From a phage, in sequence record PZ445448.1: DNA of 64,000 nucleotides; one strand, written 5' to 3'. Position 1 is the first letter of the stretch, and each line of letters begins with the position of its first letter. A program made the translations under genes and the position numbers. Below the pieces are notes generated by a model. It ran no database searches. It was not told where the DNA came from and worked only from the letters and a program-made list of their open reading frames with translations. Positions 60,607 to 64,000 of this stretch are shown here, piece by piece.

Positions 60607-60730
60607 TTTTCATACTCTCCAGTTTACTCATAACTAACCAGATCAACAACACTACACAGTGTGGTTATGTAGGTGCCAATTGAAAAACCATCATTCGATT
60701 GGCTACCGTTACCTACTAAACCTTCCTACA

Positions 60731-62578: not shown

Positions 62579-62640
62579 AACTGACTACCTCACTGCATAC
62601 TTTCCATAGTAAGTAAAGCCGGGTAATCCCGGCTATGTTG

Positions 62641-63354
62641 TTAAATATACTCTGTTACATCCTTGAAGCTCGAAGGCTTCATAATCTTACCTTTACTGTC
62701 AAGGAATATAATAACTTTATTGCCGTTGTAGAACTCCTCTTTAGCAACGAAACCTTCGTAGCGACCACCAAAACGACGCTCAAGATCTTTAATCTCCAAC
62801 TCGATGAGTTGTTCAGCAGGCATATCTGCACTGGCACCGTGTGAATGCCGTAGATGGTTGATCCGTGCAAACTTACTGTCATTAGATTTTAGAACCTTCC
62901 GCATCATCCCACACACATCCCCGCTAAGCTGGAACAGCAAAGCTGTTGATAACTCCGCTAGTCGGTAAGCTGACGCTCTTTGCTTGGATGTGTTTTTCGC
63001 AGCGATCAGTGTATCATAGAACTCACCGATCTTGAACTTAAGACCTCGCGGATTATCAAACAGGTTTGACCACTTTTCGTGGTTATCATTAACAAGATAA
63101 GCTGCATAACTTGTGACAACGTGAAGATCGCAGGCCTCTTTTAGCAGGTGATCTCCACCATCACCTTTCTCCAGCTCTTCCAAAACCTCATTGAACTCTT
63201 CCTCAATGAAGCTAAGCTGTAATTCGAATGGTGTGTATGATTTTTTCACTTTAGCTGCCACACGGTTCCAGTTTTCCACCCAGTTGGCAGACCAAAGGTA
63301 GTTTTCAGGCTGGGACAGTTTTTCCAGGTTGTCGATCAGTTTAGTATTCAGCAT
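62641..63354 (-). CDS. MazG-like nucleotide pyrophosphohydrolase
   Basis: EEEFNEVLEELEKGD...LLKEACDLHVV resembles MazG E..E....E...DLL core. Confidence 0.4.
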   Translation of the reverse strand: MLNTKLIDNLEKLSQPENYLWSANWVENWNRVAAKVKKSYTPFELQLSFIEEEFNEVLEELEKGDGGDHLLKEACDLHVVTSYAAYLVNDNHEKWSNLFDNPRGLKFKIGEFYDTLIAAKNTSKQRASAYRLAELSTALLFQLSGDVCGMMRKVLKSNDSKFARINHLRHSHGASADMPAEQLIELEIKDLERRFGGRYEGFVAKEEFYNGNKVIIFLDSKGKIMKPSSFKDVTEYI

Positions 63355-63367
63355 TAAAGGTCTCCTT

Positions 63368-64000
63368 TTAAAGTTCCATAAAGTTTTCTACAGTTTCAAT
63401 AAATGCTTTATCAGAGAAAGCGTCAACAGCACCGTTAAACCATACAGGGATCCCGCGATCCTCATATTGATAAAGGTCGCTACGTGAAATGCCACTTCCA
63501 TCTGCACTCTGCGAATCATACTTGTTTACAATCAGCAGTTTTGTGCCTTTACAAGTAGCAGGAAACAATTCCCAGTTAAAATTAATAACTGTGTTAGAAC
63601 AACCTACCAGGATCACCATATCATTGCTTGTGAGAGATGTCAACAGGTCATACATGTCTGTATACTTAGGAGCAACCTCACCGAAGAACACTACATTGGG
63701 CTTAACCCAGGTATACTTGCCTGTATCTACCTCCGTGTATCCGATATTTTTAATTACATCATTACCTTCAGCATCTTCGTAGGTGATTTCAGGCAAATAC
63801 CCGTGGACATGTAAAATATCTTCATGTTTTACACCAGCACGCTCCAGCAAATCATCTACATTGGTAGTAAGGTTGATCACACGACCAGACCAGCGGGAAT
63901 ACCACTCAGCGATCCGAAGATGTGCAAGGTTAGGATCAACACTGCCCAGAGCTACACGACGTGCATTGTAAAAGTCATGCACCTTATAGTAGTTCTTGGC
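63368..64000 (-). CDS. Sir2-family protein (5' end beyond window)
   Basis: LTTNVDDLLERAG, HVHG, PNVVFFGE, VILVGCS match sirtuin motifs; reading frame stays open to window edge. Confidence 0.55.
   Translation of the reverse strand, partial: AKNYYKVHDFYNARRVALGSVDPNLAHLRIAEWYSRWSGRVINLTTNVDDLLERAGVKHEDILHVHGYLPEITYEDAEGNDVIKNIGYTEVDTGKYTWVKPNVVFFGEVAPKYTDMYDLLTSLTSNDMVILVGCSNTVINFNWELFPATCKGTKLLIVNKYDSQSADGSGISRSDLYQYEDRGIPVWFNGAVDAFSDKAFIETVENFMEL

Follow-up and report, generated by a model that had tools for sequence, protein, structure and literature searches.

A zinc-less Sir2-family protein encoded beside RNA-repair genes in a Vequintavirus phage and its possible part in NAD+-dependent RNA repair

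The rV5-like E. coli phage (Vequintavirus) of sequence record PZ445448.1 encodes a Sir2-family protein that has no zinc module and whose gene lies among genes for RNA-end processing. It was met at the end of the window, that is, the whole 64,000-nt stretch of DNA that was analysed. The protein is a zinc-less descendant of the class III (CobB/SIRT5-type) deacylase sirtuins, and it is tentatively proposed that it may perform the NAD+-dependent step of phage RNA (tRNA) break repair. The gene itself had already been annotated, and a function based on its context had already been published, so no new object is described here.

An earlier sequence-only reading of this region had described a phage-encoded Sir2-family protein at the window edge, and this description held. 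The four sirtuin motifs that it quoted are all found in the minus-strand translation (Table 1) and correspond, in full-length numbering, to TNVDDLLERAG (89-99), HVHG (107-110), NVVFFGE (145-151), and VILVGCS (172-178). It gave no strand; the open reading frame does run off the window, and what lies outside is the 5' end of a minus-strand gene. The part inside comprises 210 codons without a stop and ends in ...ENFMEL. These 210 residues are identical to residues 44-253 of a 253-aa protein of phage Bas59/EduardKellenberger, and 43 N-terminal codons lie beyond the window end. The full gene is annotated in Bas59, in Murica, and in I29, whose DNA is 99.9% identical; the missing 43 residues were taken from phages 99.8-99.9% identical to the window phage. 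The Pfam SIR2 model (PF02146, cut-off 24 bits) matches the window fragment with an E-value of 4e-15 (56.6 bits) and the full-length protein with 6.9e-28 (98.2 bits). With these profile scores, membership in the Sir2 family is far beyond chance.

Table 1. Features of the Sir2 locus that lie within the window.
Feature	Position	Strand	Details
Sir2-family gene, 3' part	63368..64000	minus	codons 44-253 and TAA stop (reverse complement of 63368-63370), from translation
Spacer, Sir2 stop to next start	63355..63367	minus	13 nt; reads AAGGAGACCTTTA, Shine-Dalgarno for the downstream gene
Putative MazG-superfamily-like nucleotide pyrophosphohydrolase	62641..63354	minus	237 aa; downstream, same transcription unit
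G+C-rich hairpin AGCCGGG-TAAT-CCCGGCT, likely terminator	62617..62634	minus	7 nt past the MazG-like stop; listed on the plus strand by the hairpin scan

The NAD-binding loop, GAGLSAESGIPTFR (residues 9-22), lies just beyond the window and was read in the 99.8-99.9% identical phages. The sequence-only reading had left the NAD-binding Rossmann signature to be checked in the full-length protein; it is complete there, as G9-A10-G11-x-S13...S16-G17...F21-R22. The residues G9, A10, G11, S16, F21, R22, N90, D92, H109, G110, F149, E151, G176, and S178 are invariant in 57 homologues. The catalytic ones among them (N90, D92, and H109-G110) are all encoded within the window. From these conserved NAD-site residues, an NAD-consuming activity may reasonably be inferred.

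The zinc module of the canonical deacylase sirtuins (classes I-IV, U) is absent, as had been noted before. There is not a single Cys between the HG and FGE motifs (residues 111-145), and the loss extends to the whole phage family: the four-Cys module is missing throughout, and two Cys are present in just 1 of 90 members. It is accompanied by a change in the active site. The Gln of the TQN(I/V)D motif, found in 100% of the zinc-bearing relatives, is replaced by T89, from which no member of the phage family departs. Thr89 and zinc loss are coupled across relatives, with an odds ratio of 38 (Fisher p 1e-16; best 150 representatives). The YxxR motif of class III is present and invariant, with F53-Y54-N-A-R57-R58 aligning with FYNARR of CobB. 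By alignment, F149 and V181 line the acyl-lysine tunnel, and the C-terminal 50 residues are phage-specific. The residues that are invariant in the phage family are nearly all common to zinc-bearing cellular relatives in housekeeping neighbourhoods.

The AF2 model was made from P0001, a full-length homologue with 93% identity (pLDDT 90, pTM 0.88). It displays the sirtuin fold, with a Rossmann domain and a small domain, and the position of the zinc module is filled by a confidently modelled three-strand sheet. In the model, the phage protein consists of the catalytic domain alone (253 aa), with no sensor or regulatory domain attached. The best Foldseek match is E. coli CobB (E 4e-18, TM 0.75, ~27% identity), and the top 50 matches are sirtuins throughout, with TM values of ~0.7-0.75. 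The best sequence match to structures is also CobB (1s5p, E 3e-21); the nearest structures are CobB, Af1-Sir2, and SIRT5. At so low an identity to CobB, the idea that the gene was recently captured from its E. coli host was rejected.

The sirtuin gene stands third in a co-directional run of genes for an Rnl1-like RNA ligase, cREC (PF20274, E 4.9e-14), Sir2, and a MazG-like protein, with overlaps or gaps of 4-13 nt between them. A kinase-only polynucleotide kinase and a calcineurin-like metallophosphoesterase are encoded divergently to this run. Of these linked neighbours, the MazG-like gene alone falls within the window; the others are annotated neighbours with Pfam or PHROG matches. cREC is a predicted cyclic-phosphate-processing domain. 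The MazG-like protein is assigned, putatively, through PHROG 671 ('nucleotide pyrophosphohydrolase', E 1.9e-21; RefSeq note for Murica) and marginal matches to Pfam PRA-PH (E 0.08) and to the HisE 1yvw profile over the EExxE...D helix (E 0.038). Its single-sequence AF2 model was unusable (pLDDT 46), it carries a conserved C-terminal module without an assigned function, and its homologues are found near Sir2 in 16 loci. In phage Murica, the annotation places a ribosome-binding site at the position equivalent to the 13-nt spacer and a terminator, on the gene strand, at the position homologous to the hairpin, which is likely the terminator of the run in the window phage. Pfam scans found no ART-superfamily (Tpt1/KptA) domain, and no Macro domain in any neighbour scanned. 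PDB sequence searches with the RNA ligase and the kinase gave no informative match and did not discriminate between a T4 Rnl1-type and a 2'-phosphate-requiring Trl1-type enzyme in the case of the ligase; for the phosphoesterase, the sole match was an uncharacterised Aquifex protein.

Sir2 homologues are annotated in ~975 of 50,697 GenBank phage records, T5.102 included. The linkage to RNA-repair neighbours recurs in 15 IMG/VR loci and has outlasted rearrangement in Mydovirus-type loci of roughly 145 kb. As Mydovirus-type phages are relatives of Vequintavirus, the synteny common to both is not fully independent evidence. In the unrelated T5-like phages, the sirtuin is paired with an HAD_SAK_2 'Swiss-army-knife RNA repair' phosphatase (~29 loci). 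A T4-like metagenomic contig has the order RlaP, Sir2, NADAR, and on a marine contig Sir2 and a NadR-like gene for NAD salvage overlap, with HAD_SAK_2 in the vicinity. The co-occurrence with the RNA ligase at the genome level is partial. Sirtuin-bearing Stephanstirmvirinae phages have, at another place in the genome, a gene for an Rnl with 47% identity, and T5-like phages have the sirtuin without the Rnl-type RNA ligase of the window phage. Among Salmonella-phage records, Sir2 is found in 287 and Rnl in just 14; many Pseudomonas and Streptomyces phages have Rnl and no sirtuin. The neighbours of the Justusliebigvirus sirtuin are annotated as 'putative aminoacyl-tRNA synthetase', for which no Pfam or PDB support was found, and this context is uninformative.

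Sirtuin deacylation and the Tpt1 reaction follow a common two-step logic, in which C1'' is attacked and the ribose 2''-OH then attacks in its turn; the retention of His109 is in keeping with this. The proposed pathway would undo the cleavage of RNA by host metal-independent RNases. In the specific form put forward by Iyer et al. (2022), the opening of a 2',3'-cyclic end and its ligation would leave a 2'-phosphate. In the first sirtuin step, an oxygen nucleophile of the substrate, here the 2'-phosphate, would attack the nicotinamide-ribose C1' of NAD+ bound in the sirtuin site, and nicotinamide would be released. The retained catalytic His would then activate the 2''-OH of the ADP-ribose, which would attack the phosphate, giving 2'-OH RNA and ADP-ribose 1'',2''-cyclic phosphate. 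The latter would be handled by cREC and possibly also by the MazG-like enzyme. Such a scheme would parallel the chemistry of Tpt1/KptA, the proposed analogue, in its NAD+-dependent two-step transfer of ADP-ribose, and also the yeast Trl1+Tpt1 pathway, since the phage sirtuin is grouped with an RNA ligase, a kinase, and a predicted cyclic phosphodiesterase. Tpt1/KptA itself belongs to the ART superfamily and, unlike in chemistry, has no homology to the phage protein. No sirtuin is known to have Tpt1-type activity.

Nevertheless, several points count against the RNA-repair role. The T4-type Rnl1/PNK pathway leaves no 2'-phosphate, and E. coli has a KptA of its own. The active site is nearly indistinguishable from that of zinc-bearing cellular relatives in housekeeping contexts. 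The YxxR residues (Y54, R57) and the tunnel residues (F149, V181) are kept, so acyl-lysine could still be the substrate. The many phages with the sirtuin and no Rnl, or with Rnl and no sirtuin, also count against it. Throughout, the case for RNA repair is one of guilt by association.

The neighbourhood was described by Iyer, Burroughs, Anantharaman & Aravind (2022, Viruses 14:1977, PMC9503650, section 3.7.3), who predicted that the phage sirtuin strips 2'-phosphates from RNA in the manner of Tpt1/KptA; this is an independent, published prediction. Their type 2 neighbourhood (Escherichia phage V5/Proteus phage Mydo) covers this gene family in the phage group studied here. Its members, namely a T4-like RNA ligase, cREC, a kinase for nucleotides, a pyrophosphatase of the MazG superfamily, and a calcineurin-like phosphoesterase, are matched in the lineage of the window phage. 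Their type 3 (T5/SP15 with an HAD phosphatase) is reproduced in the present loci, and the window-phage protein shows no substantive difference from the clade that they described. What is added here is the zinc loss with the coupled Gln-to-Thr change, the retention of YxxR, the AF2 model, the RlaP-Sir2-NADAR and Sir2-NadR-like contexts, and the partial co-occurrence with Rnl. A search of the literature on phage, T5, or Vequintavirus sirtuins returned no experimental work on any member.

The serious rival to RNA repair, though on balance an unlikely one, is that the protein is an NAD+-dependent lysine deacylase whose substrates would probably be acidic acyl groups (succinyl, malonyl) as well as acetyl groups. 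During infection, it would then reset the state in which host or phage proteins are acylated, and its RNA-repair neighbours would be mere synteny or its targets. CobB and SIRT5 are the closest proteins by both sequence and structure and share with the phage protein the GAGxS...FR loop, FYNxRR (YxxR), the N/D pair, the catalytic His, and the FGE loop; in the phage family, the catalytic His, the N/D pair, the FGE loop, and YxxR are all invariant, and in SIRT5 and CobB it is YxxR that binds the succinyl carboxylate. Deacylation is also favoured by the near-identity of the phage-invariant residues with those of zinc-bearing housekeeping-context relatives and by the many sirtuin-bearing phages without an RNA ligase. 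However, the phage protein differs from CobB and SIRT5 in its lack of zinc Cys, in Thr for Gln, and in an RNA-repair context instead of a housekeeping one. The four-Cys module lost by the whole clade belongs, to our knowledge, to the structure of all deacylase sirtuins characterised so far, and the change of Gln to an invariant Thr coupled to this loss argues in the same direction. All seven NCBIfam CobB/deacylase models score far below their cut-offs (best NF001753, 122.6 vs 243 bits), and enzymes that process RNA ends or ADP-ribose are found in all four gene contexts.

Other uses of the intact NAD site can also be considered. A mono-ADP-ribosyltransferase that tags proteins, RNA 5'- or 3'-phosphate ends, or NAD-capped RNA, in the service of host takeover or RNA-end protection, is improbable. 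Host targets are commonly ADP-ribosylated by phages (PMC9503650), ADP-ribose-processing partners (NADAR and cREC) stand beside distant members, and dedicated transferase sirtuins are known. The example is SirTM (class M; Rack et al. 2015, PMC4518038). It sets a precedent for a sirtuin that is not a deacylase, its operon partners having given the clue to its function. SirTM, however, keeps the zinc domain, has Gln for the catalytic His, and has a Macro partner, while the phage protein is the reverse, with His109 and no zinc Cys; in the window phage, neither Macro nor any other eraser adjoins it, and no target can be named. Likewise improbable is an NAD+ glycohydrolase that would serve host shut-off or anti-defence, whether by depletion or remodelling of the NAD+ pool or through the destruction of immune signals derived from NAD. 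The Sir2 domains of defence systems (ThsA, DSR1/2, SPARSA, SIR2-HerA) can, according to the literature, be pure NADases that keep the His as well; the phage protein has the Sir2 Rossmann core in common with them and, like them, plays its role where phage and host meet, and the NadR-like neighbour of a distant member suggests real NAD+ turnover. Unlike them, it is phage-encoded and has no sensor domain. Defence-type Sir2 models are unmatched: the sole PADLOC hit, at E 0.011, is an unrelated candidate, and Pfam SIR2_2 scores E 0.097 (13.2 bits, cut-off 24.5). The structural neighbours are deacylases and not ThsA, DSR2, or SPARSA, and the known phage counter-measures (NARP pathways) rebuild NAD+ instead of burning it. 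For host takeover or anti-defence through NAD consumption, as suggested by the sequence-only reading, specific support was not obtained, and the context is one of RNA-end healing and sealing. A defence-system identity (no PADLOC match) and a SirTM-like toxin/antitoxin pair (His kept, Macro partner absent among the neighbours scanned) were rejected.

Should the protein indeed serve RNA repair, its counter-defence would consist only in undoing the damage caused by host RNA nucleases, by a mechanism different from the one suggested earlier. A wider proposal, which is rather doubtful, is that the phage sirtuins with Thr89 and no zinc would be the first of their family to act on nucleic acid, either as RNA 2'-phosphotransferases or broader NAD+-dependent RNA-end-processing enzymes. 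They would replace Tpt1/KptA in a Trl1+Tpt1-like phage pathway directed against host RNA-cleaving defences, with the YxxR anion pocket re-used for phosphate. The idea of an RNA-acting sirtuin has already been published, in the form of a prediction, and the novelty would therefore lie in its demonstration and not in the hypothesis. The clade is widespread and includes the model phage T5 and several easily manipulated phages of the BASEL collection, so the question is directly testable. If the predicted activity is true, sirtuin chemistry would be widened from acyl-lysine to RNA phosphate, and an NAD+-dependent step would be added to phage tRNA repair. It would also bear on how large virulent phages of the rV5-like, T5-like, and phi92-like groups escape anticodon nucleases and other RNA-targeting defences.

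The Sir2-family reading frame at the window edge is real, and its minus strand is the only addition to what the sequence-only reading had observed. The translation runs stop-free for 210 residues to ...VENFMEL, contains all four quoted motifs (NVDDLLERAG, HG, VVFFGE, ILVGCS), has zero cysteines from HG to VVFFGE, where the zinc module had correctly been called missing, and leaves the window as had been stated, the absent portion being the 5' end. The fragment alone matches Pfam SIR2 (E 4e-15). With megablast, the segment 62000-64000 matched 120 phage records, led by Escherichia phage I29 (99.9%) and followed at 99.8% by A6-1 and the BASEL phages Bas59 (EduardKellenberger) and MaxTheCat, all of which are Vequintavirus (rV5-like), as are the matches of the window's first 25 kb. 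In near-identical records, the gene spans 762 nt, encodes 253 aa and is named 'putative Sir2-like protein' or 'sirtuin domain NAD-dependent deacetylase'; residues 44-253 of the Bas59 protein are identical to those in the window. Over its full length, the protein gives E 6.9e-28 to SIR2 and E 1.5e-108 to PHROG 2162. The Rossmann signature, on which the family assignment had been made to hinge, is present in it, because the 43 residues past the window end (MRRLIIISGAGLSAESGIPTFRSGSTAMWENFSIDEVCNIHTF) include the canonical sirtuin NAD-binding loop. An antisense ORF within the gene goes unannotated in all related records and is in all likelihood spurious. Records labelled 'Campylobacter phage' (MG065653, MG065654, MG065666, MG065676 and related) share 97-100% identity with E. 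coli Vequintavirus over the Sir2 region, one with a 100% identical Sir2 protein; their host label looks doubtful, through contamination or mislabelling.

The closest solved proteins by sequence are E. coli CobB (1s5p, E 3e-21), SIRT5 and Archaeoglobus Sir2-Af1, which are class III sirtuins. A confident AF2 model (pLDDT 90, pTM 0.88), built for a full-length homologue with 93% identity, had a floppy cofactor loop at residues 23-28, as expected, and Foldseek against the PDB placed CobB first (E 4e-18, TM 0.75, ~27% identity), then Af1 and SIRT5. All seven CobB/deacylase NCBIfam models scored far under their cut-offs. Across 57 diverse homologues, the invariant residues are G9, A10, G11, S16, F21 and R22 in the NAD loop, together with F53, Y54, R57, R58, N90, D92, H109, G110, F148, F149, E151, G176 and S178; residues F53-R58 form the class III YxxR motif, matching FYNARR of CobB in the alignment. 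The phage family differs from all characterised deacylase sirtuins in lacking the zinc cysteines, with as many as two Cys at that place in just 1 of 90 members, and in the Gln of TQN(I/V)D, which is invariantly Thr. The would-be zinc segment is modelled as three strands (pLDDT ~95). A family-profile search of 1.84 billion representative proteins gave 164 representatives at E <= 1e-30, and the best 150 of these were aligned with the reference sequence. Among the Thr- or Gln-bearing sequences of that set, 37 combined Thr89 with zinc loss, 82 combined Gln89 with zinc and 18 were mixed (odds ratio 38, Fisher p 1e-16). The near relatives with zinc and Gln lie in ordinary cellular neighbourhoods, e.g., beside purine biosynthesis genes or lipoate ligase. 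Nearly all residues invariant in the phage family are found in these relatives too, which makes the phage clade an offshoot of cellular CobB-type sirtuins that has lost zinc but whose catalytic centre is otherwise conservative.

Features of the Sir2 locus and of compared loci (genes beyond the window end taken from Bas59, Murica and I29; L numbers denote fetched loci)
Feature	Position	Strand	Remarks
Sir2 gene, 3' part	63368-64000	minus	stop codon TAA, 63368-63370
Antisense ORF, 97 aa	63489-63782	plus	within Sir2 gene
Shine-Dalgarno spacer AAGGAGACCTTTA			inside window; 13 nt, Sir2 stop to next ORF
MazG-like ORF, 237 aa	62641-63354	minus	directly downstream of Sir2
G+C-rich hairpin	62617-62634		7 nt past MazG-like ORF; annotated terminator in phage Murica
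ATP-dependent DNA ligase, 427 aa	60731-62014	minus	Pfam ligase models cover residues 285-416 only
cREC_REC protein, 116 aa			immediately upstream of Sir2, 8-nt gap; PF20274 'cyclic-phosphate processing receiver domain', E 4.9e-14
Rnl1-like RNA ligase			upstream of cREC, 4-nt overlap; PF09511, E 1e-14
Polynucleotide kinase, kinase-only, 136 aa		divergent	AAA_33; PHROG 505 'polynucleotide kinase'
Calcineurin-like phosphoesterase		divergent	
HTH protein		divergent	
Putative homing-endonuclease gene, 717 nt	L001 3862-4578		Bas59; separates endolysin from DNA ligase
T5.105	L067 8143-8649		RefSeq name 'Sir2 (NAD-dependent deacetylase)'
RlaP (PF10127), Sir2, NADAR (PF08719)	L073 4917-7181		T4-like 71-kb metagenomic contig
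Sir2 and NadR-like gene	L070 6001-7888; L071 531-4423		marine metagenome contigs

The MazG-like ORF matches PHROG 671 'nucleotide pyrophosphohydrolase' (E 1.9e-21), with marginal PRA-PH and HisE matches spanning the EExxE...D helix; the name MazG-like is used for it by RefSeq and in the available text of Iyer et al. (PMC9503650). Its invariant residues lie mostly in the C-terminal half (SNDxK 157-161, E187, E192, R194, G197, Y199, GKIxKP 222-227), which suggests a conserved extra C-terminal module with no function assigned. The N-terminal 280 residues of the DNA ligase gave no family match, and in Mydovirus-type loci, too, this ligase gene is found at 1-2.5 kb from the sirtuin. The homing-endonuclease gene is present in Bas59 but missing at 60607-60730 in the window and from I29 and Murica, so that a mobile endonuclease varies in presence among these phages. 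In related phages, tRNA genes follow farther along past the divergent genes; the window contains none.

Three contexts recurred when 64 IMG/VR loci with sirtuin relatives were fetched and their ORFs searched with iterated neighbour profiles. The first comprises Vequintavirus and Mydovirus-type phages of about 145 kb, in which 15 loci hold Rnl, kinase, phosphoesterase, MazG-like protein, ATP-dependent DNA ligase and usually cREC within 4 kb; the gene orders of the two groups differ, and the linkage therefore outlasted rearrangement. The second comprises about 30 loci of T5-like phages, including T5 itself (T5.102), where the sirtuin lies beside nrdD, 0.6-1.1 kb from two DUF7415 proteins and a match (E 4e-20) to HAD_SAK_2, 'HAD domain in Swiss Army Knife RNA repair proteins'. 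Despite its name, T5.105 belongs to these HAD_SAK_2 phosphatase-domain proteins (Pfam E 4e-20); PHROG 18062 is misleadingly named in the same way. The third comprises Stephanstirmvirinae (phi92-like, Justusliebigvirus), whose sirtuin neighbours are uncharacterised and which carry a 47%-identical Rnl at another genome site. Across genomes, the sirtuin and Rnl are coupled only in part: of the phage records, 975 have a sirtuin homologue (287 from Salmonella phages, mostly T5-like) and 758 have this Rnl, among them just 14 Salmonella records and a large number from Pseudomonas or Streptomyces phages without the sirtuin. The Sir2 homologues of Klebsiella phage vB_Kpn_3 (P0038) and OY978796.1 (H55) are annotated 'tail assembly protein' and 'nicotinamide-nucleotide adenylyltransferase', respectively, probably in error. 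Among distant members, one is on a contig of apparently cellular origin, and two others are zinc-less. On marine contigs, one of these two runs into the beginning of a NadR-like gene of 389 aa (CTP_transf_like with CoaE/AAA_18; NMN adenylyltransferase/kinase), and HAD_SAK_2 lies 2.3 kb downstream, a locus that pairs a predicted NAD-consuming enzyme with NAD salvage. The T4-like contig, which carries the other and has an HD_4 protein 1.2 kb past its RlaP-Sir2-NADAR genes, shows a context outside the three types described in the available text of Iyer et al. (PMC9503650).

The favoured reading, held tentatively, is that the phage sirtuin may act in RNA repair. Sirtuin deacylation and the Tpt1 reaction start alike, with attack by a substrate oxygen on C1'' of NAD+ and departure of nicotinamide; the ribose 2''-OH, activated in sirtuins by the catalytic His (here His109), then attacks an electrophilic centre, which is carbon in deacylation and phosphorus in the Tpt1 reaction. 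Because these two-step mechanisms match, 2'-phosphate chemistry is plausible here: an RNA 2'-phosphate oxygen would attack C1'' with loss of nicotinamide, and the His109-activated 2''-OH would then attack phosphorus. The Tyr and Arg of YxxR (here Tyr54 and Arg57, adjoining Arg58) bind carboxylate in class III enzymes; speculatively, Tyr54 and Arg57, with Arg58 alongside, could hold phosphate in the phage sirtuin. The yeast pathway employs Trl1 (ligase, kinase, CPDase) and Tpt1, and is paralleled by the phage set of kinase-only polynucleotide kinase, cREC as predicted cyclic phosphodiesterase, Rnl1-family ligase and NAD+ enzyme. The evidence for RNA repair is only associative, and two further points count against it: T4-type repair leaves no 2'-phosphate, and T5-like phages carry the sirtuin without this ligase.

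The main rival is an acyl-lysine substrate, a lesser possibility that keeps its place because the active site is so near that of cellular deacylases; the missing zinc cysteines and the Gln-to-Thr change tell against it. A role as an ADP-ribosyltransferase is improbable, since the ADP-ribosylating SirTM class shows the opposite pattern, with zinc kept and the catalytic His lost (PMC4518038). NADase activity, the idea of the sequence-only reading, is likewise improbable: no PADLOC defence model or Pfam SIR2_2 was matched, and no defence-type Sir2 stood near the top of the Foldseek PDB ranking. A zinc-less phage Sir2-family gene stood up to analysis; the proposal of an NAD-consuming enzyme for host takeover or anti-defence gained only partial support.

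According to the available text of Iyer, Burroughs, Anantharaman and Aravind (Viruses 2022, PMC9503650), the majority of viral sirtuins belong to a clade of their own, for which a part in RNA repair is likely. Of their neighbourhood types, the second ('Escherichia phage V5 and Proteus phage Mydo') contains the sirtuin, a T4-like tRNA ligase, cREC, a nucleotide kinase, MazG pyrophosphatase and sometimes a calcineurin-like phosphoesterase, and the third is T5-like SP15 with a HAD phosphatase. The sirtuin is proposed there to take off 2'-phosphates, KptA-like, while its partners open the cyclic phosphate or process an ADP-ribose cyclic phosphate by-product. As far as that text goes, the present gene-context analysis reproduces it independently. 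The object is already known: it carries an annotation in roughly a thousand phage genomes, T5 among them, with its context and predicted role published in 2022; the literature searched yielded no experimental studies of phage sirtuins of this clade. The biochemistry of the sirtuin lends itself to testing in T5 or the BASEL phages, and true action on RNA would be notable.
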